A DNA stretch of 64,000 bases from Bacteroidales bacterium (GCA_045639585.1 JAZUDJ010000088.1:562-64561), one strand, 5' to 3'. Shown: positions 22,025 to 58,181, counted from the stretch's first letter. The notes: generated from the sequence alone by a model not told the origin. Numbers and translations: made by a program.

Positions 22025-24280
22025 TTCGACGCGAACCAAATATCTTTTGATACCATGAAGAATGCGGCATTCAAAACCCTGACGGCCAAGCGCAGCACCT
22101 AAGGCTCTGACATTCAGCTTTGCCGACGGATTGTAGTAATTGATTCGCGCTGCAATCTCCGCCGCAGTCATCCACTTGCTGTCGCTCAGCGGTTGGCCAT
22201 CCTCTCCAAGATTAGGTTGGTGTACATAGACACTGCACAGTTCCACCTCAACGCTCTGCGACACATACTGCTCATTGTGCTTGTCGAGCTGTCGGATGTC
22301 CTGCTGGCTCATCACAAACATCCCAGCCTCATGCTGCGCCAGATAGAGAGCTTGCGCGTAAATATGTTCGTAGTCGGGACGACACTCGAAAGGATTGACG
22401 GTAAAGCGACGCACCGTAAATGTCAGCCAGCGGCGGTTGCCTGTCGGGTCGGTCAGGAAGTCGGCGCGATTGCCCGTAGCGCAGAACGTAGCGATACGCG
22501 GCATGGTACGTGGCGACTTGTCGTATGGCAAACGTTCGCGGATCACATCGAGCGTGACGAGAGACTTGAGTTGATTGACCTCCACCTCGCTCATCGCATC
22601 GATCTCCTCCAGGTTAATCAATCCGCACTCGGCCAGCTGGATGCGGTCGTCCTTGTCGAGGTTGCGGAAGCGCATCTGCTCCTTATAATAAGCGCGAAGC
22701 TCCGGTGGCATCAGCATACGCATCCACGAGGACTTGCCTATGCCCTGCGCACCGATGAAAGTCAGGATTGTGCCATGGGTGCTCGACATGTGAATCCAGC
22801 CGTGCACCATCGCCACCATCCAGCGCTTGAAGAAGTCGTCGAGCAAGGCGCGCGTCTCCTCGCCACCCTCCACCTCCACCGTCTGGATCAGCTCGTGAAG
22901 GTAGTCCTTATCACCAGGCTTCCACAATCCTTGCAACGGCTGCAGATACGCTATAATAGGATTGTAGGGCAATGAGCAGGTGTCACTCTGAAGGACATTA
23001 TACACGTCGGTCGATGTGGTGGTCAATGCAGTTTCCTCAAAGAACAGGCGCATCAAGGTGGCGACATCCGAGTCGTGCAACTCGTAATAGTGTGGAATTA
23101 GGAGTGTGGAGTGAGGAGTTTTTCCACTCTCGCACAAAGATCCGACCAAAGCCAATGACGACAGGTTACGCTGAGCGTATTGAGCCATTTGCGAGCCTTC
23201 ATTCCACTCGACCTCCAGTCGGTGAGAGATCATATTCTTGCGATACGTTCCCTGACTCAGCAAAAACGCCTCGATGTCAGCCGACGTGGCGCGATGCACC
23301 TTCTTCTCGCTGTTTTTCTGCTGGTTAGGCAATCGAAGTGTACCGAACTCTGCCTGCTTCGACTCGTAAATGCTCTTCACCACGCTCGTGATACCACGCT
23401 CTCCGTCACCATAATAGAAGTAGCGCTCCTTAGCCTCAGCCAGCGCCTCTTCCTGCTCGATGCCATAGCGATTGACCTCATAAATGACGGTGCTAAGGAA
23501 CTTGTTCAACGTGCCATGCTTCGCCTCAAATCCTTGCGTCTTGGCAAAGGCCTCAGCGGCATCAAAGGCTCTGGACAGCTGCGTCTTGACAGGTCGTCCC
23601 ACCGGATTGCCCGTCGCCATATGGGCCTTGCTCTGCTCAAAGTCGAGCAAAGCCTGGCTTAAGATAACGGTATAGGGCTGATAGTTATCCTTAAAATACT
23701 TAGCCTCAGGATCGTATGCCATAGCACTCGGTCGCGCTGCATCCTTACACTGCGTATCGACACGGAGATCCTTCAGCGTCGGAGCATTCGAGAACCACTC
23801 CTCAAACTGGCGGCGCACATCCTCCCAGATGGCATTCCACAGCAGGCGTGAGCGCTGACTCTTCTTCGGATCACGGAAGTCGAGCTCCGCCAAGTCCATC
23901 GGCTGCATATCGTGATAGCACACCTGATAGGCCACGATGACGTGCAGGCCCTTGCCGCTCAACGACCGGTGATAGCCAACGACATGCATCAGCATACCGA
24001 GGTAAGCGACCATGTATTCCATCTGCTTCTCATCCAGATGGTCATAGTCGAAGTAAAGCAATCCAGTGAGCTGCTTGATATTCTCCGTCTTCCTGCCACC
24101 CTCCATGATGGCCGACGGTACGAACACCGGCACGCGCTGCTTTTGCCCCACTCCCTGACGGTGCATCTCTGTCTGCATCCGCAAGTCCTGATCCGTCTTT
24201 ATTTTCGTAAAGACGTCGCCCAGCGACACTATCTGCGGGGGGGTAGACAGTAGATTATTGAAAGTTGAAACGGTTTCCAA
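22022..24280 (-). CDS. VirE-like P-loop NTPase with an N-terminal primase-like (VirE_N/BT4734-like) region
   Basis: Walker A FIGAQGIGKSSW. 752 aa with a large N-terminal domain. TTG start at 24280, 9 nt after the HTH gene stop. The family call comes from remembered architecture, not a search. Confidence 0.75.
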   Translation of the reverse strand: METVSTFNNLLSTPPQIVSLGDVFTKIKTDQDLRMQTEMHRQGVGQKQRVPVFVPSAIMEGGRKTENIKQLTGLLYFDYDHLDEKQMEYMVAYLGMLMHVVGYHRSLSGKGLHVIVAYQVCYHDMQPMDLAELDFRDPKKSQRSRLLWNAIWEDVRRQFEEWFSNAPTLKDLRVDTQCKDAARPSAMAYDPEAKYFKDNYQPYTVILSQALLDFEQSKAHMATGNPVGRPVKTQLSRAFDAAEAFAKTQGFEAKHGTLNKFLSTVIYEVNRYGIEQEEALAEAKERYFYYGDGERGITSVVKSIYESKQAEFGTLRLPNQQKNSEKKVHRATSADIEAFLLSQGTYRKNMISHRLEVEWNEGSQMAQYAQRNLSSLALVGSLCESGKTPHSTLLIPHYYELHDSDVATLMRLFFEETALTTTSTDVYNVLQSDTCSLPYNPIIAYLQPLQGLWKPGDKDYLHELIQTVEVEGGEETRALLDDFFKRWMVAMVHGWIHMSSTHGTILTFIGAQGIGKSSWMRMLMPPELRAYYKEQMRFRNLDKDDRIQLAECGLINLEEIDAMSEVEVNQLKSLVTLDVIRERLPYDKSPRTMPRIATFCATGNRADFLTDPTGNRRWLTFTVRRFTVNPFECRPDYEHIYAQALYLAQHEAGMFVMSQQDIRQLDKHNEQYVSQSVEVELCSVYVHQPNLGEDGQPLSDSKWMTAAEIAARINYYNPSAKLNVRALGAALGRQGFECRILHGIKRYLVRVE
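23094..23121 (+). repeat. heptamer tandem array, 4 units, inside the VirE-like ORF (antisense orientation)
   Basis: GGAATTA GGAGTGT GGAGTGA GGAGTTT. Read on the gene strand as KTPHSTLLIP. Confidence 0.85.
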
Positions 24281-24289
24281 ATTATGGAG

Positions 24290-24766
24290 TTATTTCGAAT
24301 TAAGACTACGGCGCTTCTTAATCTCCTCGCGCATCATGAGCCACAACTCAGGACCGGCATTGCTCTTCTCCCCTCGTACAGTCAAACCGAGTTTGCGCTG
24401 GAATAATCGCCACAAGGTGGAGTCATTCGCATAACCGAAAACCTTGGCGACGTCATCGAGCTTAGCATCCGGATGCACCCCGATATACTCCTCCACCTGA
24501 TGGATACGGTATTGCTGAATCACATCGATCAACCGCATATCCATTTCGAGCTGAATAGCATAAGCCAACTTGCGAGCATCGACAGCGAGATACTCTGCCA
24601 GTTCCTTGCTCTCAATGCACTTCGTATCATAAAGAGCTTCCGCCACCGCATTGACGAGGCGCGACGCTGTGTATGTCTCCGGCTGACCAGGGATATAATC
24701 GAAAACTTGCTGTAAAGTGACAGCAGGAAGATAAGGTTTAGTTTCTTTCATAATAGATTTTGACAT
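24290..24766 (-). CDS. AraC-type helix-turn-helix DNA-binding protein (single HTH_18-like domain)
   Basis: ELAEYLAVDARKLAYAIQ... and LDDVAKVFGYANDSTLWRLFQRKLGLT. ATG at 24766 (MSKSIMKETKPY); 24751 is an alternative. The track ORF to 24934 starts at TTG and only translates the upstream repeats. Confidence 0.7.
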   Translation of the reverse strand: MSKSIMKETKPYLPAVTLQQVFDYIPGQPETYTASRLVNAVAEALYDTKCIESKELAEYLAVDARKLAYAIQLEMDMRLIDVIQQYRIHQVEEYIGVHPDAKLDDVAKVFGYANDSTLWRLFQRKLGLTVRGEKSNAGPELWLMMREEIKKRRSLNSK

Positions 24767-24949
24767 TAGGGACGTGATGTTAGAATAATTGTCTTGTGAG
24801 TCTAACACTGCGGACGTAGTGTTGGTATCTGAGAGCTGCGAGTCTAACACTACGTCCCTAGTGTTAAGTCTCACGGCCTGCGAATCTAACACTACGTCCG
24901 CAGTGTTAGATCCATTCGTGCAAGATATTAACAACGCGAACGTAGTGTT
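24762..24949. repeat. five palindromic sites with exact 42-bp phasing upstream of the HTH gene
   Basis: Cores: 24762-24781 GACATTAGGGACGTGATGTT (degenerate), 24804-24823 AACACTGCGGACGTAGTGTT, 24846-24865 AACACTACGTCCCTAGTGTT, 24888-24907 AACACTACGTCCGCAGTGTT, 24930-24949 AACAACGCGAACGTAGTGTT. Centres fall at 24771.5, 24813.5, 24855.5, 24897.5 and 24939.5. Confidence 0.85.
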
Positions 24950-25035
24950 AACACATAAGCTTCGCTAAGGTCTCCCACGAATCTTTTCGCGACAAACCCC
25001 GCTCAGTTATTGTATAAATAATATATTGCACGCGA

Positions 25036-25043
25036 CAAAGATA
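25036..25043 (-). promoter_or_regulatory. candidate -7 box for the HTH-VirE-Fic unit
   Basis: The minus strand reads TATCTTTG, matching TAnnTTTG. No convincing -33 TTTG. It sits about 270 nt upstream of ATG 24766, so the five palindromes would be in the leader. Confidence 0.3.
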
Positions 25044-25083
25044 ATAATAATTATAATACGTTGGTAAAAAAGGGATAAAAAAA

Positions 25084-25119
25084 GTGAGATTGACACGGGA
25101 AAAGTCGTGTCAACCTCAC
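25084..25119. terminator. bidirectional intrinsic terminator downstream of the last gene of the upstream glycan sub-cluster
   Basis: GTGAGATTGACACG - GGAAAAGT - CGTGTCAACCTCAC (14-bp stem, 1 mismatch). Flanked by A7 on the left and TTTT on the right. Confidence 0.7.
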
Positions 25120-25169
25120 TTTTAATAACGATTTATTATTATTTCGTATATCAAAATATAGAATTCTTC

Positions 25170-26156
25170 CTATCTGCAAGGGCTTAATGAAGCAATCTTG
25201 ATTGCTATTTTCTGATAAAGATTAGGAAAAAAACTAATAATGATGAGACTCATTTTCTTAAAGAGAGGGAAAGATGAAATAAGCAGATCTCTCCTGTATG
25301 AACTAAGGTATGCTTTTGAGTGTTCCTTTGCATAACTATAAAGCTCTGTATTTCGAGACTCACACAAGATATTCAAAATTGTTTTAATGCACTTCTGTAA
25401 ACAGACATTACTCAGCTCAGATCGTTCTGGCTTCAAGATTTTATAACACCTATCATATACATCGATTTGATCTATATACTTTTTTGTAATACCTTGATGA
25501 ATAATCGATCCAGTACGTTGCACATAATAATAGAGTGGAGCATTCACCAGGATTGCCAGATTCATACGCAATGATACTTCTGTATTAAAAATCAAATCTT
25601 CAGAAATTGGACACTCTGCGAATTTAATGGGTTGGATAAAATTCCTTCGATACAACTTATTCCATGCTACAATATAAAAAACGCCATTATCCTTCCATGT
25701 TCCAAACATTCGACTGACCATCTGATCCTTTGAAATCTCTTGTTTAGAGACATCTGAATATTGGAAATGCTGTTGAGTCAAAGTATCCCCATCATGAAAA
25801 GTGGAAAACAAACAGAATGAGAAATTGGCACTAGGATTCTCGGCTAATGCACGATAAAGAAACTCGTACATCAGTGGATGAATGAAGTCATCACCATCAA
25901 CGAATGCAATGTATTCTCCTGTCGCTTGTTCCAGCCCAAAATTCCTTGCTGCAGACAATCCTCCATTCTGTGTATGAAAGGCCTTACATCGAGCATCTAC
26001 AAGGGCAAAATTATCACATATCTGACCACAATCATCAGTTGAGCCATCATCTACTAAGATAATCTCCAGATCCTTAAACGTTGAATCCAAAATACTTTGA
26101 ATACAATCATGCAGATAACTAGACACATTATAAACTGGTACAATGACGCTTATCAT
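25170..26156 (-). CDS. glycosyltransferase family 2
   Basis: MISVIVPVYNVSSYL, LVDDGSTDDC and FVDGDDF. Paralogue of 32480-33475. Confidence 0.85.
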   Translation of the reverse strand: MISVIVPVYNVSSYLHDCIQSILDSTFKDLEIILVDDGSTDDCGQICDNFALVDARCKAFHTQNGGLSAARNFGLEQATGEYIAFVDGDDFIHPLMYEFLYRALAENPSANFSFCLFSTFHDGDTLTQQHFQYSDVSKQEISKDQMVSRMFGTWKDNGVFYIVAWNKLYRRNFIQPIKFAECPISEDLIFNTEVSLRMNLAILVNAPLYYYVQRTGSIIHQGITKKYIDQIDVYDRCYKILKPERSELSNVCLQKCIKTILNILCESRNTELYSYAKEHSKAYLSSYRRDLLISSFPLFKKMSLIIISFFPNLYQKIAIKIASLSPCR

Positions 26157-26165
26157 ATATCAACA

Positions 26166-27182
26166 CTAATTTCTTGATAAGTGTGGTAAAATGAGCTTCA
26201 CAAAAATGTTCTTATAAAAGAATCCAGATATACGGAACAGATAAAAATTCTTTATAGAAAAGTTAATAAATTCCCCCCACAAGCCTAACCCTTTCGCTGG
26301 AATCAGTCCATTCTTGGCTAAAAAATGTCGGAGTTTCAGAAAATCATTTCTAGACAATTTAGCACAAAGGGCTCTACTAATAAATGGAAGCAGTAGTCCT
26401 TGGAGTCTGTTTTTCAACGTTTCGCTAAGATCCGTGTATTGGTGGGAGTATTCTATGTACTTATCAAACGACTGAAGGTAACCATTGACAGACTCGCGCA
26501 TGGACTTTTTTTCCCTAACTCGCGTCAGCTGTGTTTTAGACGTAGTATAGAAATACGCGCAAGTATCGACTTCTCGAACTTTTGGATTTTTCACATAAAC
26601 CTCCAGATTGAATAAATCATCCTCTCCAATAACAATAGACGCAAACTGAATGTTATTTCTTTCGAGAAGCTCTCGTCTATAGAATGTAGTCCATATAAAA
26701 GATGGGAGCCTATTCAATAAGATTGCATCCTGACCATATCCTTCAAAAAGAATGTTGCCAGACAATGGCATCTCTTGCCATTTTCTAAGCATTTTCTTAT
26801 CCAAAGTGACAGACCAAAATTTTAAGATATCTATCCCTTCTTCCCAAAAATGTGTAAAAAGATAATAATATGATCCTTTGGCTAAATAATCATCGGCATC
26901 ACAAAAGGCGATGATTGCACCTTGTGCTAATGCCAAACCTGCATTGCGAGCGGCAGAATGTCCTTGGTTCTCCTGATGATGAAGTTTTATGCGAGAAGGG
27001 AATCTAATCTGGTATTCTGAAAGAATTTGAGCAGAGCTATCTGTAGATCCATCATTTATACATATAATCTCGTATCTGGAATCTTCTTCAGGCCATTGGC
27101 ATAACAAAGAATCCAGACAACGCGAAATGAAATGTTCCGCGTTATAAACTGGAACAATGACAGATAGAATGATTTCTTGCAT
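26166..27182 (-). CDS. glycosyltransferase family 2
   Basis: LSVIVPVYNAEHFI, INDGSTDSS and FCDADDY. Paralogue of 10711-11721. Confidence 0.85.
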   Translation of the reverse strand: MQEIILSVIVPVYNAEHFISRCLDSLLCQWPEEDSRYEIICINDGSTDSSAQILSEYQIRFPSRIKLHHQENQGHSAARNAGLALAQGAIIAFCDADDYLAKGSYYYLFTHFWEEGIDILKFWSVTLDKKMLRKWQEMPLSGNILFEGYGQDAILLNRLPSFIWTTFYRRELLERNNIQFASIVIGEDDLFNLEVYVKNPKVREVDTCAYFYTTSKTQLTRVREKKSMRESVNGYLQSFDKYIEYSHQYTDLSETLKNRLQGLLLPFISRALCAKLSRNDFLKLRHFLAKNGLIPAKGLGLWGEFINFSIKNFYLFRISGFFYKNIFVKLILPHLSRN

Positions 27183-27195
27183 TATTACATGAAAC

Positions 27196-28347
27196 CTATA
27201 ATATCTTACTTACATCAATTCTTGAGATGTATTCTGGCATAAACGCCTGATAATACTCCCGTATAGTTTTCTCATTCTCCATCAGCCATTGGAACGCATT
27301 TGTCAGCTCGTCTGGTTGCGTCATTGACTGCACCGGCAAGACATAATTCTCTTCTGTACCAAAGATGTCTCGGGCAATTCCCCTTGCTTTGACACTATAA
27401 CCCACTACTAAAGTCGGTACCTGCGTGGAATATGCGGCAATCGAAGCATGTGTACGAGCAGCGACCAAGAAGCGACACTTTGAGATAATGTATTTCAATT
27501 CCTCTGCATTCAGTTTTGCCTCAGCATCGATCATAATGACACGACCTGTATCCTTGAACTGCTCATGCAATGCAAGCAAAGGCTTACGGTCATCATTATG
27601 GCTCCACACGACATGCGGGATCAATGCTATCTGCATGTCGGTATGCTTAATAATATATTGGATGAGATTTATGTAATTCTCAAGTGTCATACCTGCAGCC
27701 TTCTCATAGCCGATAATCATCGGGCTCACGTTGATGCCGACAGTGTTACCCTCGGCGAAGCCAGAAGGTAAGAGGACATCCCTTCGAGAAAGTGTAAATG
27801 CCGGATCGGGCATCAAGACAACGTTATTAGCCCCCAACGCGATCAAAGATTTATAGGTCAATGACTCTCTTGTCCAAATGACTTTGTATTTCTTAAGATC
27901 CTGGAGTATAGTATCACTCAATCTGGATGCATCGACAGAACATCCAACCAAAATCGTATCAATCTTTTTTTTTGCGAATATCTGCCGCATAGCAGTCATC
28001 TCTGTCATCATCCCGGAATAACAATAGTTATCTCCTCCAATTGACAGGGCGACATCTCCTATCTGCGCTGTATCTGAAATCCGACTATATAATTTTTTAT
28101 AATAGAATAAATCTTTGTCTTTATGAAATTTACAGCAGATCTGATATAACAATCCAGTATTGACTGCTGTTTGAGATTTCTTAATAGTCAATAAATTATC
28201 TATACCATAGAGTATATCCTCCTCTGGATGATTGGAAATCAATAAATTATTCGTATTATCGCCAATCAGCGCAGATAAACTTCTGACAATAGCTTCACAC
28301 CCGTGGTTCTTGCTACCACCATGAGCGTACAAAATCTTTCTTACCAT
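27196..28347 (-). CDS. polysaccharide pyruvyl transferase family protein
   Basis: The N-terminal AHGGSKNHGCEAIVRS pattern and ~380 aa size are typical of the WcaK/CsaB-like PS_pyruv_trans family. Recognised by resemblance only. Confidence 0.7.
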   Translation of the reverse strand: MVRKILYAHGGSKNHGCEAIVRSLSALIGDNTNNLLISNHPEEDILYGIDNLLTIKKSQTAVNTGLLYQICCKFHKDKDLFYYKKLYSRISDTAQIGDVALSIGGDNYCYSGMMTEMTAMRQIFAKKKIDTILVGCSVDASRLSDTILQDLKKYKVIWTRESLTYKSLIALGANNVVLMPDPAFTLSRRDVLLPSGFAEGNTVGINVSPMIIGYEKAAGMTLENYINLIQYIIKHTDMQIALIPHVVWSHNDDRKPLLALHEQFKDTGRVIMIDAEAKLNAEELKYIISKCRFLVAARTHASIAAYSTQVPTLVVGYSVKARGIARDIFGTEENYVLPVQSMTQPDELTNAFQWLMENEKTIREYYQAFMPEYISRIDVSKIL

Positions 28348-29381
28348 TATTGCAATGGATTTTTATCACTTTTATACCATGAGATAAACTGACGGATGCC
28401 ATCATGTAGCGTCCAATGTGGGTGATACCCGATCTCGGTTTCCAATCTTGTCGTATCTGCATTGGTCTGATAGACATCCCCAGGCTGCATCGGCATATAT
28501 ACCTTCTCAGCCTCTTTGCCCATTGCCGCTTCAATCTCACTAATAAAGTCCATCAATTTCACAGGATGACTACAACCAATATTGTAAATACGATAAGCTA
28601 CATGATTCGGGCAATCCTCTGCTTTTGGCATAGAATCGACGACTTTAATCGTACCTTCTACAATATCATCGATGTAAGTAAAGTCTCGAATCATATCGCC
28701 ATGATTAAATACCTTTATAGGCTTATTATCTCGTATTGCATTGGCAAAAAGGAATGGAGACATATCTGGTCTTCCCCAAGGGCCATAGACCGTAAAGAAT
28801 CGCAAACCGGTAACAGCTATGCCATAAAGCTTGCTATAGCAATGAGCCATCAGTTCATTGCTTTTCTTGCTTGCTGCATAAAGACTCACGGGAGTGTCGA
28901 CCTTATCATCCTCACAATATGGCACTTTTTCATTTAGTCCATAAACAGAAGAGGATGAAGCAAAAATCAGATGCTTCACGCCACGATGTCGACAAGCTTC
29001 AAGTATATTCAAAAAACCGACAAGGTTGCTCTGCATGTAACTATATGGATTTGTGATGCTATAACGGACACCTGCCTGTGCTGCCAAATTAACAACCTTA
29101 TCAAATTTCTCATTTTCAAAAAGATAATCAAGCAATTCTTTCTCTTCTATGCTCATGCGGACAAAACGCAAATTAGGGAAGGACTTGCTAATATAGTTTT
29201 TGCAAGAAATAAACTCTCCATCAGTAGTTATTCCATTTTCTGCTAAACGTCCATATTTGAGACGTACATCATAATAATCATTCAGATTGTCTACACCAAC
29301 GACGTCATCTCCCCGTTCTGCCAGACAACGAGAAAGTTTAGATCCAATAAAGCCTGCTGCTCCTGTTACTAATATTTTCAT
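28347..29381 (-). CDS. NAD-dependent epimerase/dehydratase (UDP-glucuronate 4-epimerase-like)
   Basis: MKILVTGAAGFIGSKL Rossmann motif and YAASKKSNE (YxxxK). Length 344 aa. Confidence 0.85.
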   Translation of the reverse strand: MKILVTGAAGFIGSKLSRCLAERGDDVVGVDNLNDYYDVRLKYGRLAENGITTDGEFISCKNYISKSFPNLRFVRMSIEEKELLDYLFENEKFDKVVNLAAQAGVRYSITNPYSYMQSNLVGFLNILEACRHRGVKHLIFASSSSVYGLNEKVPYCEDDKVDTPVSLYAASKKSNELMAHCYSKLYGIAVTGLRFFTVYGPWGRPDMSPFLFANAIRDNKPIKVFNHGDMIRDFTYIDDIVEGTIKVVDSMPKAEDCPNHVAYRIYNIGCSHPVKLMDFISEIEAAMGKEAEKVYMPMQPGDVYQTNADTTRLETEIGYHPHWTLHDGIRQFISWYKSDKNPLQ

Positions 29382-29388
29382 TATAAAT

Positions 29389-30477: not shown

Positions 30478-30480
30478 ATC

Positions 30481-34256: not shown

Positions 34257-34262
34257 AAACTT

Positions 34263-38645: not shown

Positions 38646-39488
38646 CTATACGGTATCCATAAAGTTGCGCTCGGTATGAGAAAAGACAATGACGCTTAGG
38701 AAGAGGCCGACAAACATGAAGATGGTGCTGTAGAGGAGTCCTCCCCAATCAAGAGTGCCACATCCGAGGCTGGAGTATTTGAAAGCCTCGAAAATAGGAG
38801 TCAAAGGATTTAGGGCAATGATTTCGCGATACTTCTCTGGAGCGGCGCTCAGTGGATAGATGACTGGGGTGGCATACATGAATAGCTGGATGCCAAACTG
38901 AATGAGAAACTTGAGGTCGCGATACTTTGTGGTCAGCGAGGAGATGATCAGACCCCAGCTCATAGAATGGAGAGCGAGCAATACCACTAAAAGTGGGAGA
39001 ATGAGGAGTGAGGAATGAGGAGTAAGGAATTGACCTGCTTGGGTAAAGAACTTGAAATAGAGATATACCATTATGAAGAGGACGAGCTGAATGAGCATCT
39101 TCAGCAGGTTGCTCGTAGCAATGCTGAGGGGCACCACCAAACGTGGGAAATAGACCTTACCAAACACGTTGGCATTAGCAGAGAAGATATCAGAGCAAAG
39201 GGTGAAGGTCTCACTGAAATAATTCCAGAGCAAGATGCCAGCCATGTAAAAAAGTGGTTGAGGTGCCCCATCGGTACTGATGCCGGCTAGTCCACCAAAC
39301 ACAAACATGTACATAATGGTGGTAAAGACGGGCTGGATGACATACCATAACGGTCCAAGGATAGTCTGCTTGTACTTGGTGACGATATCACGCTTGACAT
39401 ACATGACATAAAGGTCGCGATAGCGCCATAAACCTTTGATATCAATATCCAATAGGCCTCGACGTGGGGTGATTACATGTTCCTGCAT
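38646..39488 (-). CDS. wzm: ABC-2 type polysaccharide exporter permease (Wzm/TagG/KpsM-like)
   Basis: 280 aa with six hydrophobic helices and an ABC-2 pattern (KYKQTILGPLWYVIQP). The ATPase partner lies 8.5 kb upstream at 48037-49317. Confidence 0.8.
   Translation of the reverse strand: MQEHVITPRRGLLDIDIKGLWRYRDLYVMYVKRDIVTKYKQTILGPLWYVIQPVFTTIMYMFVFGGLAGISTDGAPQPLFYMAGILLWNYFSETFTLCSDIFSANANVFGKVYFPRLVVPLSIATSNLLKMLIQLVLFIMVYLYFKFFTQAGQFLTPHSSLLILPLLVVLLALHSMSWGLIISSLTTKYRDLKFLIQFGIQLFMYATPVIYPLSAAPEKYREIIALNPLTPIFEAFKYSSLGCGTLDWGGLLYSTIFMFVGLFLSVIVFSHTERNFMDTV
38998..39032 (+). repeat. heptamer tandem array, 5 units, inside the wzm ORF (antisense orientation)
   Basis: AGAATGA GGAGTGA GGAATGA GGAGTAA GGAATTG. 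Read on the gene strand as FLTPHSSLLIL. Confidence 0.85.
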
Positions 39489-40824: not shown

Positions 40825-41931
40825 TTACTTCAGTTTCTGGAAGAATTCGTCATGACAATAAAGCATCTGTTCCTTGCGGAATCGTCGGATGCTATCCTGC
40901 GATCGTTGTGCATAATGCTGAAGAAGGCCAGAGGTGGTGAGCATTTGGCTCAAACCGTCATAAAGGCCCTGTTCTGAGTTATCGACAACCAACCCATATT
41001 CGTTCGCCTTGCCTAACAGTTCCTCTGCACCGCTGCATCGCGTACTCACGACGGGGGTACCGAGTAGCAATGACTCGATAACGGTGGTGGAAAGGCCTTC
41101 GTTATGCGAAGAGCAGACATATAGATCGGCCTGCGCCATATAGGGATAAGGATTGTTCCGAAAACCGAGGAGATGTACAGTGTCTTGTAATTGTAATTCT
41201 CTCACTAGCGGCTTCAGTTCGGACTCTTGAGGCCCTGTCCCGATGAGATACAGATGGTGTAAAATGCCCGAATCCAAGAGTTGTCGATGAACACGAATCA
41301 ATCGATCATAACCTTTGACTGGAGCTAAGCAGCCGACACTGATAACATTACAGGAGGTGGGAAAAGGAAGATCCGCCATCGACGATTGTGATAAACGGAG
41401 TACTCGTTCGCTATCGATGATATTATAAAGCAAATCACACTTTCTGTCTAAAAGCTTCTCTATATGCTGACGGATAGTATCAGAGACGGCCACTACCCTA
41501 TCAAATTTGGCATAACAGCTGATGGTCTCCTGCTCGCTGCGAAAACAATAAGAAAGTGACGACATGTCTGGTTGGTCGATATGTATCCAAGCCACTTTCT
41601 TTGAGTCAGGATAGGGGCAACCAGAGATAATACGTGTAGTGGAGCCTTCCAGATAAGCAACCGCCACATCATATTTTTTTTTGACAATGAGACGATAGAG
41701 CCACTGCGGAGAGAAAAACTTCATCAACTGTACATAGCCGCGAAGGAGGAACGGCAGGCCGGGACGATACTCTACCTTAGAACTGAGGTCTTTCCGCAAC
41801 TCTCCCACATCAAACAATGTCTGCACTGTGATGCGATACTCGTTCTTGTCAAGGCCATTAACCAGGTTGACAAGGACTCGCTCTGCACCACGAGTAGCAA
41901 GGGAAGGAATGAGGAAGAGAAGGGACTTCAT
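40825..41931 (-). CDS. glycosyltransferase family 4
   Basis: LYVCSSHNEGLSTTVIESLLLGTPVVSTRCSGAEELL. ATG at 41931 (MKSLLFLIPSLATRGAERV) preferred over 41994. Confidence 0.85.
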   Translation of the reverse strand: MKSLLFLIPSLATRGAERVLVNLVNGLDKNEYRITVQTLFDVGELRKDLSSKVEYRPGLPFLLRGYVQLMKFFSPQWLYRLIVKKKYDVAVAYLEGSTTRIISGCPYPDSKKVAWIHIDQPDMSSLSYCFRSEQETISCYAKFDRVVAVSDTIRQHIEKLLDRKCDLLYNIIDSERVLRLSQSSMADLPFPTSCNVISVGCLAPVKGYDRLIRVHRQLLDSGILHHLYLIGTGPQESELKPLVRELQLQDTVHLLGFRNNPYPYMAQADLYVCSSHNEGLSTTVIESLLLGTPVVSTRCSGAEELLGKANEYGLVVDNSEQGLYDGLSQMLTTSGLLQHYAQRSQDSIRRFRKEQMLYCHDEFFQKLK

Positions 41932-41978
41932 GAAGGGAAAAAGGAGAAGGATGAAGGGAAAAATGATAGACAAGAAGG

Positions 41979-42884
41979 CTACAGAAGAAGCCAAGAAGGT
42001 GCGTAAAGGGCGACGGGGGTGCTATCGTTCATCCAGCGACGTGGAGCAATGACAAGTTGGTCATTACTATGGGCAAGGTACTGCATCCACCAAGAGAAGG
42101 AACTATTGGATAGAATATGATGACGGCAAAGAGTACCAAGATAAAGGGACTGTTGATCGGTGAATGACGATGGGACGATGGTAATCTGGTGATCAGGAAC
42201 CAGATGATTGTGTATTATCTGGATGGCCAGCTCGGGGTCATCGGAGAAGAGGAAGAAATGGGCATCAGGATGATATTGAAGCATCTGACTGATGGCTTGC
42301 TGATAGTATTCTGCATCACAGACATGATGGCGAAGAGAGGACAGATAATCTCCAAGACGGACATGAAGGCAGACGGCATTGCAAGACTGAATCTGTGAAG
42401 CAAGAGACTCACAAGAACAGACTATATCTTTTGAGAAAGAAAAGTCCTGACGAATCTGGTCTTGATAGTCCTCAAAGTATTGCTCCGACTGGAAGTACCC
42501 GCTGCAATAGAGTTTCTGTCCACGGAGTCTTTTTTCTCGAAATGGCAGGTAGCCATCGAGGCAGAAAAATACTCCACAAAAGTTAATTAGCGGCTGAACG
42601 AATCGCTCGGCCTTATATAATGATACGGGATGGTTGGCTAATAGTTTTGCCAGTTTGCCCATAAATCTGGCAGCGAATTTTGTCAGAAAAGGCAGATCAT
42701 CAAAACTATCTTTGTATTGTATGCTTTCTGCTAAAGCAAAACAGTCCAAGCGAGATTCCTCCTGTCCGACCAAATAACATTGAGTGATATTCATCCGCAA
42801 CATTACAGTTCGGGCAAAGGCATACTGAAACATTTGGTTCCCGAGGCGGTTGTTGTGACGAACGAACAAGATACGCGAGGTCAT
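41979..42884 (-). CDS. GT11 alpha-1,2-fucosyltransferase
   Basis: NRLGNQMFQYAFA and LHVRLGDY (the GT11 signature motifs). Confidence 0.85.
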   Translation of the reverse strand: MTSRILFVRHNNRLGNQMFQYAFARTVMLRMNITQCYLVGQEESRLDCFALAESIQYKDSFDDLPFLTKFAARFMGKLAKLLANHPVSLYKAERFVQPLINFCGVFFCLDGYLPFREKRLRGQKLYCSGYFQSEQYFEDYQDQIRQDFSFSKDIVCSCESLASQIQSCNAVCLHVRLGDYLSSLRHHVCDAEYYQQAISQMLQYHPDAHFFLFSDDPELAIQIIHNHLVPDHQITIVPSSFTDQQSLYLGTLCRHHILSNSSFSWWMQYLAHSNDQLVIAPRRWMNDSTPVALYAPSWLLL

Positions 42885-47208: not shown

Positions 47209-47210
47209 AC

Positions 47211-48029: not shown

Positions 48030-48036
48030 GATCGCC

Positions 48037-51812: not shown

Positions 51813-51854
51813 ATAAGGATAATTACGAATTACAAAACTCTGGTTACAAATTAT
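51813..51854 (-). repeat. heptamer array (GTAATTN variant), 6 units, filling the wza-wzc gap
   Basis: Plus strand ATAAGGA TAATTAC GAATTAC AAAACTC TGGTTAC AAATTAT. The reverse complement of 51821-51836 equals 235-250 (TTTGTAATTCGTAATT). Confidence 0.8.
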
Positions 51855-52684
51855 TTGAAGATTGCGATGACAGTAAGAGCGCTGGTGAGAAGACCGACCC
51901 AGAAGGTATAATTAACCATGCTGCTACCATACTCTGTAGTGGTACGCTTCACCTTATCACTTGGCTCTACATAAACGATGTCATTCTGCTGGAGATAATA
52001 AGCAGGAGAATTATAAAGTTCCTCTGCGGAACAGAGATTTACCTCGTATGCAATACGCTGATTGGCACCGCTCTCACGGATAACTCGCACATTCTCACGC
52101 TGGCCAGTGATATCCAAGTCTCCTGCCTGAGTGATGGCATCAAGAATAGTGAACTGGTCGCGATCGATAGGAATACGACGTACACCAGTTGCACCCATCA
52201 TCAAAACGTTAAGATTAACAAATTCAACAGTAATGATAGGATCTTTCACCAAATTCTGAGCAATCAGCTCTTCCTTGATATATTCCTGTAGTTCTTCACG
52301 CGTCTTATTAAGGACATTCAAACGGCCCAAAATAGGGAAATTAATGTAGCCATCCGATCCTACTGTATACTCAGAAGGTTGAGTACCAGTATTTGTTGTC
52401 ATAGCATTACCAGCACTATTGATAGAATAATTACTGTGCAAGCTGAACAACTGCGACAATGATGCATCACGGGTACTAACAAGGATACTCACCTTATCTG
52501 CTGGGTGCAGGCGAATGCTCTGTGGCTTAACGATAGGGACTCGCTTCTCAAGTGGCATATCCTGGAAATAAGCCACGTTGTAAGGTGTAGAGCAAGATGA
52601 TAGCGCTACAAGTAAGAGCATCAGTGAGAACAAGAATGACCGATGAGAGGTCATGTGACTGAATGAGTTACTAAGAATTTTCAT
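51851..52684 (-). CDS. wza: polysaccharide export outer-membrane protein (Wza/Poly_export + SLBB)
   Basis: Signal/lipobox LLLVALSSCS. Size and position immediately upstream of wzc fit Wza. Has the PADKVSI and GAxGVRRIPI-type SLBB pattern. Confidence 0.85.
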   Translation of the reverse strand: MKILSNSFSHMTSHRSFLFSLMLLLVALSSCSTPYNVAYFQDMPLEKRVPIVKPQSIRLHPADKVSILVSTRDASLSQLFSLHSNYSINSAGNAMTTNTGTQPSEYTVGSDGYINFPILGRLNVLNKTREELQEYIKEELIAQNLVKDPIITVEFVNLNVLMMGATGVRRIPIDRDQFTILDAITQAGDLDITGQRENVRVIRESGANQRIAYEVNLCSAEELYNSPAYYLQQNDIVYVEPSDKVKRTTTEYGSSMVNYTFWVGLLTSALTVIAIFK

Positions 52685-52721
52685 ATCAGGAGTTATTTTA
52701 TATTTGGCAAAAAAGATTTGG

Positions 52722-52729
52722 CAAAGGTA
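52722..52729 (-). promoter_or_regulatory. candidate -7 box upstream of wza
   Basis: The minus strand reads TACCTTTG (TAnnTTTG), 38 nt upstream of the wza ATG. No clear -33. Adjacent direct repeat ATTTGGCAAA x2 (52702-52711 and 52717-52726). Confidence 0.3.
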
Positions 52730-52823
52730 TACATTTCTAGAGAGACATGCCTACGGCGGTGGTCACCACACGGAGCGTACGGCAATCACACTATACGTCG
52801 CGCAAATATATAAATAAATAATG

Positions 52824-52866
52824 ACTCCTCAAAATCTCAGCGAAAAAAAATGAGATTTTGAGGAGT
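52824..52866. terminator. 16-bp perfect hairpin terminating the ABC-2 transporter operon
   Basis: ACTCCTCAAAATCTCA (52824-52839), 11-nt loop, TGAGATTTTGAGGAGT (52851-52866). T-rich on both outer flanks. About 100 nt downstream of the stop at 52969. Confidence 0.65.
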
Positions 52867-52968
52867 TTTCGTGGGTTTATTGCACAAAAAAGCAAAAATA
52901 AACGATTTTTTGATGTTGTTTTATGTTTATTTATCAGTTTTCTCTATGACTATGATAATATGTTGTAA

Positions 52969-54315
52969 TTACTGACGAATCCACTTAAGAATATCTTTCC
53001 AGCTGAACTTCTTGCCATACATCAGGATACCCGTGCGATAGATACGAGCAGCAAGCCAAAGGATAAGAAAGGCTGTAACATAGAGAATGAGCAGCGAGAG
53101 GGCAATCTCATATACGGGGACGTCGAACGGGAGACGGACCATCATGGTGATGGGCGAAGTGAAAGGAACCATGCTGCACCACCAGGCCAGAGGGCCATCA
53201 GGATTCTGCATGCTGAACATACCCGCATACAGAGCAAAGACCATAAAGAACATGATCGGTGCCATGAACTGTGATGTATCCTGCTGCTGATCGACAGCCG
53301 AACCGAAGGCGGCAAAGAGACTAGCATAAAGCAGATAACCTCCGACGAAATAGAGCAAGAAACAAGTGAGAATAAGTGGATAGTTGACACTCATGATCAT
53401 CTGGAAAATCTCTCCAGCCTGACTAGGAGCCATTGCAGCAGCCTCCACAAGAGCAGCATCGGCAGAGAGTGAAGAAGGATCAGGGACACTACCTAAACCG
53501 AATGTCACAGTGGCAATAATACCGGAAACGCCCAATAGTACTCCCCACACTGCAAATTGTGTGAGTCCGACGAGTGCCACGCCGATGATTTTGCCGAGCA
53601 TCAGTTCGATCGGTTTGCAAGAAGAGATGATGACCTCGACGATACGGTTGGTCTTCTCCTCCACTACTCCACTCATGATCATGGCACCATAAGTCAGCAC
53701 GAACATATAGGTCAGGAAGGCAAGACAGAGGCCGACAATCTCAGACACCATGGCCGACGAGACGGTCTCCTTGCCATCCTCTCCCCATTTGATGGTGCGG
53801 ACGTCGAGGTTAACGTCACAGTCCTGCAGGATCTCTTCAAGGCCCTCGATGTCATGTGCTGCGATCTTAAGACTGCGCATAGGACGATACAGGATGCTTC
53901 GGATATCCGATTCGAGACTTCCGCTCAGGGACTGTTCACTAAGAATAGACAACTGCTGAGTAGATACAATATCCTGCGGAATAATCACGATAGCATAAAG
54001 CGCATCATTCTGCTTATAAAAGTCATAATAGGAATCATCGGACGCAGACTGTAAGTCAGATGAAGTGCAAGTAACGAATTGATACTCATCAGTAGCCGAA
54101 AACAATGGCAGGAATTGCTCGCCGTCTGTCTGATCGACCACTGCCACGACCTTTTTTTCGTCGCTCTTGACATTTGACAACATGATTGGCAGCACGCCAC
54201 AGAGCAGGATGCTGAGGATAGGTACAAGAATGGTGGTGACGATAAAGGACTTCTTGGCCACCATCTGCAGGTACTCACGCTGAATGATCAGACCTAACTT
54301 ATTCATAGACTTCAT
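52969..54315 (-). CDS. ABC-2 family transporter permease (NatB-like)
   Basis: 448 aa: an N-terminal TM helix, a large extracytoplasmic loop, then 5-6 C-terminal helices. Overlaps its ATPase partner. Confidence 0.75.
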   Translation of the reverse strand: MKSMNKLGLIIQREYLQMVAKKSFIVTTILVPILSILLCGVLPIMLSNVKSDEKKVVAVVDQTDGEQFLPLFSATDEYQFVTCTSSDLQSASDDSYYDFYKQNDALYAIVIIPQDIVSTQQLSILSEQSLSGSLESDIRSILYRPMRSLKIAAHDIEGLEEILQDCDVNLDVRTIKWGEDGKETVSSAMVSEIVGLCLAFLTYMFVLTYGAMIMSGVVEEKTNRIVEVIISSCKPIELMLGKIIGVALVGLTQFAVWGVLLGVSGIIATVTFGLGSVPDPSSLSADAALVEAAAMAPSQAGEIFQMIMSVNYPLILTCFLLYFVGGYLLYASLFAAFGSAVDQQQDTSQFMAPIMFFMVFALYAGMFSMQNPDGPLAWWCSMVPFTSPITMMVRLPFDVPVYEIALSLLILYVTAFLILWLAARIYRTGILMYGKKFSWKDILKWIRQ

Positions 54316-55153
54316 TCGAATTTACGGTCTCTACGAAGATCTCGTGCATGGATGGCAAGATCTCGCGGAAACCGGTGAGTGAGTACTTGTCGTTGAGTGA
54401 TGCGATGGCATCGTGCATAGTCTGACCATGGTCGAGGCGGTAGTCGAAGCGCTGTCCGTCAGCTGTAGTGACTTCGAGGATATTCTTCTTAAAACGCTGG
54501 CGCACCTCCTCAACTTTGCCTTGCAGCACGGCCTTACTATGGTTGATGAGGGTGATCTCCTGGCACACCTCCTCGACCGACGACATGTTGTGTGTAGAGA
54601 AGAGAATGGCTGCACCTTCGTCACGAAGGCGCAGGATCTCACGCTTCAGCTGGTCGGCATTGACGGGATCGAAGCCGGAGAAAGGTTCATCGAAGATCAG
54701 AAGCGGTGGTCGATGGATGACGGTGGTGATGAACTGCACCTTCTGCGCCATGCCCTTGCTGAGCTGCTCGACCTTCTTCTTGCGCCACTCTGTGAGGTCG
54801 AAGCGCTCGAGCCATTCGGTCATGGCATGCAATGCATCCGAGCGCGACATGCCACGAAGGCGGGCGAGATAGACGATTTCGTCCTCGACGGTCATCTTCT
54901 TATACAAGCCACGCTCCTCAGGGAGGTAGCCGATGTGGTGCACGTCCTCATCGGTCATCGGACGACCATGAAGCAGAACTTCGCCACTATCGGCATGCGT
55001 AATACGATTGATGATACGTATTAAAGAAGTCTTGCCGGCTCCGTTAGGACCCAGCAAGCCATAGATTGAACCGTCAGGAACATTGAGACTCACGTGGCTC
55101 AGAGCCACGTGGTCTCCGTATTGTTTGCTGACGTCTTTTACTTCGATGAACAT
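54299..55153 (-). CDS. ABC transporter ATP-binding protein (NatA-like)
   Basis: GLLGPNGAGKTSL, LSKGMAQKV and LLIFDEPFSGFD. Confidence 0.9.
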   Translation of the reverse strand: MFIEVKDVSKQYGDHVALSHVSLNVPDGSIYGLLGPNGAGKTSLIRIINRITHADSGEVLLHGRPMTDEDVHHIGYLPEERGLYKKMTVEDEIVYLARLRGMSRSDALHAMTEWLERFDLTEWRKKKVEQLSKGMAQKVQFITTVIHRPPLLIFDEPFSGFDPVNADQLKREILRLRDEGAAILFSTHNMSSVEEVCQEITLINHSKAVLQGKVEEVRQRFKKNILEVTTADGQRFDYRLDHGQTMHDAIASLNDKYSLTGFREILPSMHEIFVETVNSNEVYE

Positions 55154-55157
55154 AATT

Positions 55158-56585
55158 TTATGCTTTCCTCTTCAGCTGCTCGATAGAAGCCGCGATCTTC
55201 TCCAACTGCTGTGGGATGCGGATGTTCTGAGGGCAGTGAGGTGAACACTGGTTACAGTTGATACAGTGATCGGCCTGACGGAGCGTAGGGATGGCGCGAT
55301 TGTAGCTGATGAGATAGTTACGACGGAGCTCACTGTAGTTAGCATCCTCCTCGCCACCAGGGAGCACACCTTCATTGACACATTTATTATAATGTACGAA
55401 GATACCCGGGATGTCGAGGCCGTAAGGACATGGCATGCAGTACTTACAGTCGTTACATGGGATGAGCGGATATTTGATCAGCTGCTTGGCTGCACCCTCG
55501 AGGTAATCGAGCTCCTCCTGTGTCAGTGGCACGAGAGGAGAGAAGCTGCGGAGGTTGTCCTGCAGGTGCTCCATGTAGGTCATACCCGACAGGGCGCTGA
55601 GTACGCGTGGATAGGTACCGCAGAAACGGAAGGCCCATGAAGCAGCACTCATCTCTGGCAGACGCGCCTTGAGGTGAGCGATGACGTGGTTTGGCAGGTT
55701 GCTGAGTCGGCCGCCGAGCAATGGTTCCATGATGACAACAGGGATCTCGCGCTTGTCGAGTTCATCGTAGAGCCATTCGGCATTGATGCTTCGGCCCTCC
55801 TGCTTATCACCGTTGTTCCAGTCAAGGTAGTTCATCTGGATCTGCACGAAGTCCCAGTGATACTTACCCTCATCGTGCCACTTAAGCATGGTCTCAAAGA
55901 CTTCAGCCTCGCCATGGAAAGAGAAGCCGAGGTTGCGGATGACGCCTTTCTGCTTCTGCTCGACGAGCCAGTCGAGGATGCCATTGTCCATGTAGCGACG
56001 GTTGAAGTTGGCCATACCGCCACCGCCGATGCTGTGCAGAAGGAGGTAGTCGATATAGTCGGTCTGCAGGTACTTGAGCGAATTGCGCAACATCTCCTGC
56101 GAAGCCTCACGGGTCTGCTGCTGGACAGCGAAGTTTGAGAGCTTGGTTGCAATATAATATGACTCACGTGGACGGCCGGTAGCCTTCAAGGCGATACCGA
56201 CAGAACGCTCAGAGAAGCCCTTGAGGTAAGCAGGGCTCGTATCGTAATAGTTAACACCATGATCCATGGCGTATTTGATCAGTTCGTTGATCTTCTCCTG
56301 GTCGAGGTCATTGCCATCAGGGCCTTTCTGGCCATCGGTACGCTGAGGAAAGCGCATACAGCCATAGCCGAGGATACTTACCTTATCACCATTGGCAGGA
56401 TTGACACGGTAGGTCATCTCACCCAACTGGTCTTCGCTGAATGGTCCACCCTTAGGATTGAAGTCGCCCTCCTCTGATGGTTTAGGGGCAGAGATGCACG
56501 ATGGCAAAGTGGCAGCGGCAGCAACGGCAGCCGAACCCATGCCAAGGCGCTGTAGGAACTCGCGACGATTGATTATCTTTTTCAT
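55158..56585 (-). CDS. Tat-signal aldo/keto reductase with a C-terminal 4Fe-4S domain
   Basis: MKKIINRREFLQRLGMGSAAVAAAA twin-arginine signal, an AKR core (GVNYYDTSPAYLKG), and C-terminal CNDCKYCMPCP and CINCNQCSPHCP. Confidence 0.8.
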   Translation of the reverse strand: MKKIINRREFLQRLGMGSAAVAAAATLPSCISAPKPSEEGDFNPKGGPFSEDQLGEMTYRVNPANGDKVSILGYGCMRFPQRTDGQKGPDGNDLDQEKINELIKYAMDHGVNYYDTSPAYLKGFSERSVGIALKATGRPRESYYIATKLSNFAVQQQTREASQEMLRNSLKYLQTDYIDYLLLHSIGGGGMANFNRRYMDNGILDWLVEQKQKGVIRNLGFSFHGEAEVFETMLKWHDEGKYHWDFVQIQMNYLDWNNGDKQEGRSINAEWLYDELDKREIPVVIMEPLLGGRLSNLPNHVIAHLKARLPEMSAASWAFRFCGTYPRVLSALSGMTYMEHLQDNLRSFSPLVPLTQEELDYLEGAAKQLIKYPLIPCNDCKYCMPCPYGLDIPGIFVHYNKCVNEGVLPGGEEDANYSELRRNYLISYNRAIPTLRQADHCINCNQCSPHCPQNIRIPQQLEKIAASIEQLKRKA

Positions 56586-56639
56586 TGTTTTTCTAAGAGA
56601 ATTTAAGAGATCACAAAGGACTCTAAAAGACACTAAGGG

Positions 56640-58181
56640 TTAAATCTCACGCTGGGTATCGACACCCTCTACATAGATAGCAGAGAATGGACGCGATGGA
56701 CAGAGATTCTCACAGGCACCACAACCGATGCACTTCTCCTCGTCGACCACAGGAATCTTGGCAGACTTAGGATCCTCAGCATCGACTGGAACCATCTGGA
56801 TGGCGTTCTGAGGACAGCGACGAGCACAGAGACCACAGTTGACGCCATCATTGAGAACGACACAATTGTCCTTGATCCAGTGAGCGGTACCAATCTTGGT
56901 GCTGGCCTTGACAGCCTGACGCTCCTCGGCATCGCCCTTGAACTTGATGATCGCACCAGCTGGACAGACATCCGAGCAGCGGGTACACTCTGGACGACAA
57001 TAGCCATGCTCATAGCTGACCTCTGGCACCATCATGTGCAACAAGTCGCTGCTAGGACGAAGCACACCATTAGGACACTCGCTGACACAGAGCTGGCAAC
57101 CCGTACAATGCTGCTGGAGATGCTTGAGGCTGATAGCGCCTGGAGGGCAGATGGTGTTCTTGCGCTCTGGAACCTGCTTGTCGAGGATGGTAGCAAAGCC
57201 GCCATCGGTAGTCTTCTCCTGCGCCTTGATAGCGGTAGCGCCAAGGACAGCTGCGGTGGCGGTCAGGAAGGCGCGGCGAGAAGGCTCCTTGCTCTCTGAG
57301 TTAGGAGTCTGGAGTGGGGAGTTAGGAGTATTTGTCTTCTTGGCGATTGAGTAAGTCAATGCACCATGATTACAGGTATCGAGACAGTCGAAGCAATCGA
57401 CACAGCGTGAACCATCGACGGTGTGATTCTTGAAGTCGATAGCTGCACCCTTACACTTACGAGCGCAGAGACCACAGTTCTTACACTTATCAGCATCGAT
57501 CTGCACACGGAAGAGGCTGCGACGTGAGAGAAAACCGAGCAAGGTACCTACTGGACAGATGTTATTGCAATAAGCACGACCTCCTACCCAAGCCATGATA
57601 GCCACGATAAGGAAGGTGCAGCCAGCCAGGATGGTGAGAGGCAGTGAGCGTTGCCATATGTCGATCGTATAATACTGGAACGATCCAACCGATTCAGCCT
57701 TAGCAGCCAGGACGTTATTGCCCATCTCATAGAGTGGCTTGAGCAGCATGGTGACCATACGACCGAATGAGCTGTAAGGAGCAAGCAGCTGTACGAAGAA
57801 GCCGAAGCCTGCGAGCAATGAGACGACAAAGAGGGCAAAGACAACGATACGTGCCAGCTGATGCCACTTGGTGTCATCGTAAGAGAAGCGTCCGAACTTG
57901 CGCTTGTTCTTGTTGAGATTCAACTTGCCAGCAATCCACGAGATGGCATCCTGCAAGATACCCAATGGACAGATGACGGAGCAATAGATGCGGCCGAAGA
58001 GCCAGGTGATGACCAATAAGGCCACGACCACCACCCAGTTGAGCGCCAGGATCGATGGCAAGAGCTGTAACTTAGCCATCCAGCCTAACATGGACTGTGC
58101 TGTACCCGTGAAGTCAAGGAACAGCCAGGTGAGACCCAACAAAAAGATGAGGGCCACGATGCGGCGTGTCAGTTTTAACAT
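56640..58181 (-). CDS. membrane polyferredoxin (NapH-like N-terminal half plus multi-4Fe-4S C-terminal half)
   Basis: GRIYCSVICPLG, GRAYCNNICPVG, CKNCGLCARKC, CTGCQLCVSECP, CGLCARRCP and CIGCGACENLCP. An internal SRRAFLTATAAVLGATA motif follows a heptamer-encoded linker. Confidence 0.8.
   Translation of the reverse strand: MLKLTRRIVALIFLLGLTWLFLDFTGTAQSMLGWMAKLQLLPSILALNWVVVVALLVITWLFGRIYCSVICPLGILQDAISWIAGKLNLNKNKRKFGRFSYDDTKWHQLARIVVFALFVVSLLAGFGFFVQLLAPYSSFGRMVTMLLKPLYEMGNNVLAAKAESVGSFQYYTIDIWQRSLPLTILAGCTFLIVAIMAWVGGRAYCNNICPVGTLLGFLSRRSLFRVQIDADKCKNCGLCARKCKGAAIDFKNHTVDGSRCVDCFDCLDTCNHGALTYSIAKKTNTPNSPLQTPNSESKEPSRRAFLTATAAVLGATAIKAQEKTTDGGFATILDKQVPERKNTICPPGAISLKHLQQHCTGCQLCVSECPNGVLRPSSDLLHMMVPEVSYEHGYCRPECTRCSDVCPAGAIIKFKGDAEERQAVKASTKIGTAHWIKDNCVVLNDGVNCGLCARRCPQNAIQMVPVDAEDPKSAKIPVVDEEKCIGCGACENLCPSRPFSAIYVEGVDTQREI
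57297..57331 (+). repeat. heptamer tandem array, 5 units, inside the polyferredoxin ORF (antisense orientation)
   Basis: TGAGTTA GGAGTCT GGAGTGG GGAGTTA GGAGTAT. Read on the gene strand as NTPNSPLQTPNSE. Confidence 0.85.

Follow-up and report, generated by a model that had tools for sequence, protein, structure and literature searches.

We analyzed a 64,000-nucleotide stretch of DNA from a Bacteroidales bacterium (GCA_045639585.1 JAZUDJ010000088.1:562-64561), referred to as the window throughout, that contains a short tandem DNA repeat translated as nearly the same peptide in three unrelated proteins. The three host open reading frames (ORFs) are all on the minus strand: a 752 aa protein with a BT4734-like N-terminal domain and a VapE-like/DUF5906 NTPase domain (22022-24280; assigned by Pfam and 23 homologues), a 280 aa ABC-2 (Wzm-type) permease (38646-39488; Pfam scan and homologues), and a 513 aa membrane polyferredoxin with Fer4_5 and several 4Fe-4S domains (56640-58181; Pfam and homologues). 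Beneath each of the three peptides are four to five units of a heptamer that reads ACTCCNN along the coding strand and NNGGAGT along the plus strand. The VapE-like ORF contains ACTCCTC ACTCCAC ACTCCTA ATTCCAC (23093-23122, minus strand) and reads KTPHSTLLIP, the Wzm ORF contains ATTCCTT ACTCCTC ATTCCTC ACTCCTC ATTCTCC (38997-39029, minus strand) and reads FLTPHSSLLIL, and the polyferredoxin ORF contains ACTCCTA ACTCCCC ACTCCAG ACTCCTA ACTCAGA (57294-57332, minus strand) and reads NTPNSPLQTPNSE; all three are translated along the C-rich strand (C-sense). A preliminary description had reported these peptides in the three proteins, and we indeed found them in long minus-strand ORFs; it had the three sites right, although its boundaries were off by 1-3 nt from the exact ones given here.

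Scanning the 64-kb window for arrays of at least three units with no more than one mismatch per core yielded eight arrays, compared to 0.01 expected from first-order Markov shuffles, and three or four weaker arrays were present besides. Distances from one ACTCC to another within 30 nt were exclusively 7, 14 or 21, and Tandem Repeats Finder (TRF) returned a period of 7, confirming a head-to-tail unit of 7 nt. Single ACTCC pentamers were not enriched (rank 172/512). When synonymous codons were permuted within 55 ORFs, leaving the peptides unchanged, 0.1 C-sense arrays were obtained compared to 3 observed, and 0.4 arrays read along the G-rich strand (G-sense) compared to 5 observed. The arrays are lost on synonymous shuffling, and the signal therefore resides at the DNA level, not in the peptide. 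The arrays also use rare codons, with TCC making up 9% of serine codons and CAC 26% of histidine codons, and with the codon usage of the window, TPHSSLL would be encoded by the observed codons with a probability of ~2e-4. The Markov and synonymous shuffles together exclude chance or codon usage as the source of the arrays.

Because 7 and 3 have no common factor, three units (21 nt) traverse all three codon phases. On the C-rich strand, ACT CCN NAC TCC NNA CTC CNN is translated as T-P-(H/N/D/Y)-S-x-L-L, while minus-strand genes that read plus-strand ACTCC arrays on the G-rich strand give G-V-R/W-S-E-E-L/C. These fixed readouts account for the same peptides in unrelated proteins, and in the window every TP[HN]S match in a real ORF lay over heptamer DNA, as the preliminary description had proposed to check. 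Its explanation of the shared peptide by a shared nucleotide repeat thus holds, given the three-frame translation of the C-rich strand and the abolition of arrays by synonymous shuffling. The unit of 7 nt also means that the frame is kept only by three-unit steps. A homogeneous (ACTCCTA)n tract is interrupted by a stop codon whichever strand is read, whereas (ACTCCTC)n stays open when read C-sense only; arrays in coding sequence must therefore be mosaics of NN. The NN dinucleotides, mostly TC, TA and AC, occurred in the same mix in both orientations, and we accordingly treat the arrays as one repeat family.

In five arrays ACTCC is on the plus strand and in three on the minus strand, so that intact genes carry the repeat in both orientations (three C-sense, five G-sense); that both orientations occur had also been stated in the preliminary description. 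The five G-sense arrays lie on the plus strand within minus-strand ORFs: in a DegT aminotransferase (array 6829-6854, GSAECGVRS; ORF 6214-7362), a GT4 glycosyltransferase (8004-8029, GVWSEELGA; ORF 7349-8584), a Bac_transf sugar transferase (8746-8771, RSEELGVRS; ORF 8581-9237), the ORF at 11744-12880 (three units at 11955-11973, KSEEFGV) and a GT1 glycosyltransferase (15420-15445, EECGVRSEEC; ORF 14335-15600). The GT1 ORF additionally holds a degenerate two-unit remnant (14767-14781, plus strand, SEEFG). Outside ORFs, an intergenic array, ACTCCTC ACTCCTA GTTCCTC ACTCTTC, lies between the ORFs at 14335-15600 and 15673-16794 (15639-15667, plus strand), and a degenerate three-unit array lies just 3' of the VapE-like stop codon (21993-22013, minus strand). 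Of 11 arrays, 8 are inside ORFs in a window that is ~92% coding, and 6 of the eight arrays found by the scan are in a polysaccharide locus, in glycosyltransferases, the sugar transferase, the aminotransferase and Wzm. Comparison with orthologues revealed a +8 aa insert at the DegT array relative to L002 and a +12 aa insert at the GT1 array relative to L003; the GT1 remnant falls within a +8 aa insert relative to L003, and the Bac_transf array within a +26 aa insert relative to L158. Insertion of the repeat into coding sequence is therefore well supported for the sense-orientation arrays. An additional array, ITPNSSLLTPHY, is present in a loop of the ABC2_membrane_3 orthologue of L001, where the window has unrelated loop sequence; in L001 this gene adjoins a polyferredoxin gene 97% identical to that of the window.

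The preliminary description had named annotation frame errors as a possible source of the peptides. Homology to relatives continued in one frame on both sides of each array, and frame errors or pseudogenes are excluded for this reason. None of the ~260 retrieved homologues was truncated or frameshifted at an array.

In the VapE-like ORF the array is positioned between the two Pfam domains. The linker that holds it (residues 376-395) had a pLDDT < 50 in the AlphaFold model and is thus predicted to be disordered. Linker length varies among orthologues, the window allele being ~8 aa longer than the shortest alleles, and orthologues of 81-93% identity contained variable heptamer-derived peptides at this position, such as NSSLLTPNSSLNSTPH and STPNSSPLTPH, while those of <=70% identity had unrelated sequence. 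The clearest case is provided by two alleles, since L208 (93% identical to the window protein) equals L209 (91%) plus exactly 21 nt, ATTCCTC ACTCCTC ACTCCTA; this is an in-frame length polymorphism of three units. No ACTCC array was found in the linker of the 86% orthologue L211. At the array position L211 carried another repeat of 7-8 nt (~3700-3760; ATATCAA ATATCAAG TATCAAG), and from this the site seems to be generally prone to short tandem duplication.

Among 120 homologues, the linker that holds the polyferredoxin array was hypervariable in sequence as well as in length; an invariant SRRAFL motif follows it directly. The array was present with substitutions in L001 (97% identity) and absent from L210 (89% identity), whose linker is 22 aa long compared to 21 aa in the window and shares one ACTCC at the aligned position. 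The array thus fills a tolerant linker without net insertion. Other tandem peptide repeats, KPETL in three to four copies and STLNSQPSTLNS, were seen in the same linker of P0009 and P0022, homologues from other lineages. A twin-arginine-like motif, S/T-RRAFLTATAAVLGA, immediately follows this linker at mid-protein (57240-57293, aa ~296-312 of the ORF) and was retained in all 120 homologues; it may serve as an internal Tat-type signal or as a membrane anchor.

The Wzm permease behaved differently from the sites with inserts. Orthologues were all 278-280 aa long, and the 11-residue array peptide aligned without a gap to a segment, L-[TS]-[VI]-N-x-S-[IL]-L-L-F-P, that is conserved in ~120 orthologues; on a structure model it maps to loop 155-158 and the start of transmembrane helix 159-188. 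The Wzm of L002 (84% amino-acid identity) reads LTVNSSLLLFP from the non-periodic codons ACT GTC AAT AGC TCC CTG TTG and so has 5/7 residues of the heptamer translation without the repeat. The Wzm relatives recovered by a metagenome scan were all orthologues of <=79% identity, and alleles of intermediate identity were fetched singly. Among the former, the site was located by motif search in 66/80 loci, the other 14 not being located, and periodic DNA was present in 0/66 readable alleles. The array was present in five diverged alleles (the window, L204, L206, L207 and L212) with a mutual nucleotide identity of 75-84%, all of which keep ACT CCT NAY TCC NCA CTC CTN; in L205 it had decayed through C-to-T changes. 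Among degenerate codons specifying invariant amino acids, codon-invariant ones made up 3/5 in the array compared to 17/101 elsewhere, a difference that is marginal and was tested post hoc (Fisher p = 0.045). In a rough protein tree the TP[HN]S form was patchy and decayed via single-nucleotide changes. On these sequence comparisons the Wzm peptide is largely ancestral, with the nucleotide periodicity as the derived part, and replacement of a patch, or evolution biased toward the repeat, fits better than insertion. In two distant Wzm orthologues, L202 and L189, the homologous site showed a 6-nt periodicity, TTA NNN x6, translated as LWLGLALTLAL, which may reflect only an L-x-L-x helix with one preferred leucine codon.

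These comparisons qualify two further statements of the preliminary description. It had argued that the three proteins have no reason to share a peptide, which is wrong for Wzm, where the segment is conserved and L002 encodes LTVNSSLLLFP; the latter is also what it had named as refuting its claim, here a near-identical peptide without underlying 7-nt periodic DNA. Its proposal that the element survives as an in-frame insert is clearly supported at the VapE-like site by the 21-nt allele difference, but the polyferredoxin shows no net gain and Wzm no gap. Comparison with array-free orthologues, which it had suggested, accordingly revealed inserts at the sense-orientation arrays and the VapE-like site and none at Wzm or the polyferredoxin. 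The same data bear on whether the peptide is shared as a motif of the proteins themselves or through coincident codon usage, with the nucleotide periodicity being secondary. N-x-S-[IL]-L-L-F-P is conserved over all retrieved Wzm orthologues and T-V-N-S-S-L-L occurs without periodic DNA, as such an origin would predict; however, synonymous shuffling removes the arrays, the codons observed for TPHSSLL are improbable, and the VapE-like and polyferredoxin peptides are in non-conserved linkers and absent from orthologues of 86-89% identity. A protein-level motif is thus refuted at 2/3 sites, and as a general explanation we regard it as very improbable.

Another possibility is that the arrays are contingency loci, at which slippage by one 7-nt unit would shift the frame and switch surface-polysaccharide genes on and off. 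The unit length is no multiple of 3, copy number differs between alleles, most arrays are in the polysaccharide locus, and heptanucleotide repeats in Haemophilus are reported in the literature to cause phase variation. However, the arrays comprise 3-5 imperfect units with at most two identical neighbours, in place of the long perfect tract typical of such loci, and because they are short and imperfect they are poor substrates for slippage. In copy number we saw a single difference, the in-frame +21 nt, out-of-frame alleles numbered 0 among the ~260 homologues (a limited sampling), and arrays also occur in the polyferredoxin and in an ABC permease of another locus. Phase variation is therefore quite improbable as an explanation for these arrays.

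The closest named relatives were annotated as Prevotellaceae or Bacteroidales metagenome-assembled genomes (MAGs). Around 80 Wzm orthologues (<=79% identity) on related, Prevotella-like metagenome contigs, no array was found in 587 kb, compared to eight in the 64-kb window, and the family is therefore specific to a sublineage. Reference genomes were also scanned for the pattern ACTCCNN x4, which gives presence in taxa and not frequencies; among the matches listed were many Nostocales and other cyanobacteria, several MAGs assigned to Prevotella, Prevotellaceae, Paludibacteraceae, Muribaculaceae and Alistipes, and genomes from Planctomycetota, Verrucomicrobiota and further taxa. In L005, L009, L020, L023, L024, L028, L058 and L116, which represent various phyla, arrays were often paired in inverted orientation at a distance of 50-130 nt; these pairs are sometimes in long ORFs and resemble hairpins or miniature inverted-repeat transposable element (MITE)-like structures. 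In a Prevotella sp. MAG (SBF912SR2HQ0004; L072, 6030-6245), ~20 G-strand units (TTAGGAG/TTAGAAG) are followed directly by ~11 C-strand units (ACTCCTA/ACTCCTC), forming a long intergenic inverted repeat of the ACTCCNN heptamers.

Such a distribution could also reflect footprints or cargo of mobile elements, either MITE-like sequences or repeated transposon insertion and excision with 7-bp target duplications at an ACTCC target. One core recurs at many loci, is lineage-specific with presence/absence polymorphism and patchy over phyla, inverted pairs exist in other taxa and in one Prevotella MAG, and transposon excision has been raised as an idea for heptamers (PMC4679880). However, conserved flanks or inverted partners were sought around the window arrays and none was found, the arrays have no unique internal sequence, and they lack the terminal inverted repeats or hairpin with conserved internal sequence that characterize MITE or REP-like elements. 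Furthermore, if footprints accumulated in steps of +7 nt, genes would go through frameshifted intermediates; the Wzm and polyferredoxin sites show no net gain in length, and no transposase was linked to the arrays. An origin from mobile elements is thus improbable.

ACTCCNN joins heptanucleotide repeat families that have already been described (STRR, LSSR, TAACTGA and GGGNATC), and does not amount to a new mechanism. Heptamers of the STRR type were reportedly described in cyanobacteria by Mazel et al. in 1990. Calothrix heptanucleotides are cited in PMC4692102, and long simple sequence repeats (LSSR) of 5-11 nt were described by Mrazek et al. 2007, as summarised in PMC4679880. Like STRR and LSSR, ACTCCNN forms tandem 7-nt units at dispersed loci, with strong over-representation, lineage specificity, a patchy phylogeny and variable copy number, and like STRR it has core arrays in many Nostocales genomes among the matches listed. 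It differs from them in its host, a Prevotellaceae-like gut bacterium, in its short arrays (3-5 units) heterogeneous at two positions, and in that 8/11 arrays in the window are in ORFs, whereas STRR and LSSR are mainly intergenic, a tendency and not a strict criterion.

The TAACTGA direct repeats occur with a patchy distribution in Beggiatoaceae, Cyanobacteria and Bacteroidetes (MacGregor 2015, PMC4679880), and their stop-free orientation is read through in some unrelated ORFs as a 7-residue periodic LSVISYQ, mostly at peripheral or non-domain positions of the protein (PMC4679880). Both families are thus heptamers common to distant phyla, including Bacteroidetes, with read-through in ORFs. However, one orientation of TAACTGA is closed in every frame, and the repeat is mostly located just upstream of start codons, whereas ACTCCNN can be open both ways and in the middle of proteins, and includes a gapless replacement in a conserved membrane domain. 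In Xanthomonas and Nostoc, the GGGNATC / GGGGA(C/T)T heptamers are capable of G-quadruplex formation (Rehm 2015, PMC4692102); they are likewise heptameric with one G-rich strand and genome-wide with ~four units preferred, but NNGGAGT has GG tracts only. Borg elements, as outlined in PMC9879509, contain tandem repeats at the DNA level that have arisen independently in many genes, where they supply the encoded proteins with disordered segments. The likeness to this account is limited to shared behaviour, namely DNA-level repeats that add protein segments; ACTCCNN is one motif with a 7-nt unit common to all loci. No paper naming the ACTCCNN units (ACTCCTA, TAGGAGT, ACTCCTC or GAGGAGT) was found in the literature, nor anything specific on heptamers in Prevotella. 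The present case is set apart by its host lineage, by the large fraction of arrays that fall within genes in both orientations, and by the array in Wzm that overprints the gene without a gap.

Altogether, the ACTCCNN arrays are a DNA-level feature that occurs in both orientations, is lineage-specific and is polymorphic between close relatives. We consider it probable that they belong to a Prevotellaceae-like (Bacteroidales) lineage with dispersed arrays that originated block-wise and then passed through selective filtering. The generating mechanism that we infer is that arrays originate, or are copied, in blocks through replication slippage or through template switching from one array to another, possibly including patch-like conversion of sequence that is already repeat-like. 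Selection would then act as a filter, such that in genes only in-frame, stop-free arrays persist. Surviving arrays would need tolerant sites, such as the disordered linkers of the VapE-like protein and the polyferredoxin, loops as in the ABC2_membrane_3 orthologue of L001, or insert-tolerant positions in glycosyltransferases; a further tolerated case would be an encoded peptide that mimics the ancestral one, as in Wzm.

Several observations weigh against a block-wise origin with selective filtering. The Wzm array is not an insert, and plain insertion does not predict a codon-for-codon replacement. Conservation of the Wzm array codons hints at DNA-level constraint or recurrent conversion as opposed to neutral survival. 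Simple slippage leaves unexplained both why one 5-nt core with varying NN is found in every array and why the ACTCC core recurs across phyla. In addition, we identified no machinery that generates the arrays, and the census of the lineage covers ~120 kb only.

These observations bear on whether the arrays are functional DNA or RNA motifs, for instance phased protein-binding sites or Shine-Dalgarno-like AGGAG tracts, kept by selection or by recurrent gene conversion, with read-through as a side effect. The pentamer core is invariant while two spacer positions vary, the Wzm array codons are conserved over five alleles with the rare TCC included, the Wzm segment was replaced gaplessly, the ACTCC core forms arrays in distant phyla, and three units span 21 bp, which would correspond to about two helical turns. 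However, the codon statistic is marginal and post hoc, the L205 array decayed by C-to-T changes and the motif decayed repeatedly in the Wzm protein tree, array positions vary between close relatives, single ACTCC pentamers are unenriched, and no binding protein or phenotype is known. We therefore regard a functional motif as unlikely. The broader proposal that ACTCCNN arrays are written by an active, sequence-specific and horizontally spreading process, or are held by DNA-level selection, appears slightly less likely still. If true, it would mean that such a process can replace conserved coding sequence codon by codon, as seen in Wzm, and it would explain why arrays of one core occur in Prevotella, cyanobacteria, Planctomycetota and others. 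In one version, tandem Shine-Dalgarno-like AGGAG tracts might be tolerated only in clades with little Shine-Dalgarno pairing. Of all the features described here, only two could point to a new mechanism: the overprint without a gap in Wzm and the pentamer core common to several phyla.

The case shows how a microsatellite with a non-triplet unit can extend or alter the protein sequence encoded by functional genes. It also explains recurrent odd peptides such as TPHSSLL and GVRSEEL, which can lead homology searches and the annotation of Prevotella MAGs astray, and the arrays offer cheap markers for strain typing in polysaccharide loci.

Base composition divides the window into compartments. Over 16-20 kb and 24-40 kb, which make up much of the polysaccharide locus, the G+C content was 0.34-0.41, compared to 0.49 at 20-24 kb and 0.47-0.52 in the flanks of the locus, which suggests that the low-G+C polysaccharide locus (16000-40000) is a horizontally exchanged gene cluster. 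ACTCCNN arrays were present in both the low- and the higher-G+C compartments. An Rfam scan of the window returned no match. Two other repeats were observed in the window. An unrelated heptamer array, GTAATTT GTAATTC GTAATTT GTAATTG (231-258), ends 6 nt upstream of the ATG of a plus-strand ORF (264-1220), a placement that recalls the TAACTGA arrays upstream of start codons. Finally, TRF detected a repeat with a period of 21 nt (GAAGGGAAAAAGGAGAAACAA, 2.2 copies) at 41932-41978, at the junction of the ORFs 40825-41994 and 41979-42884.

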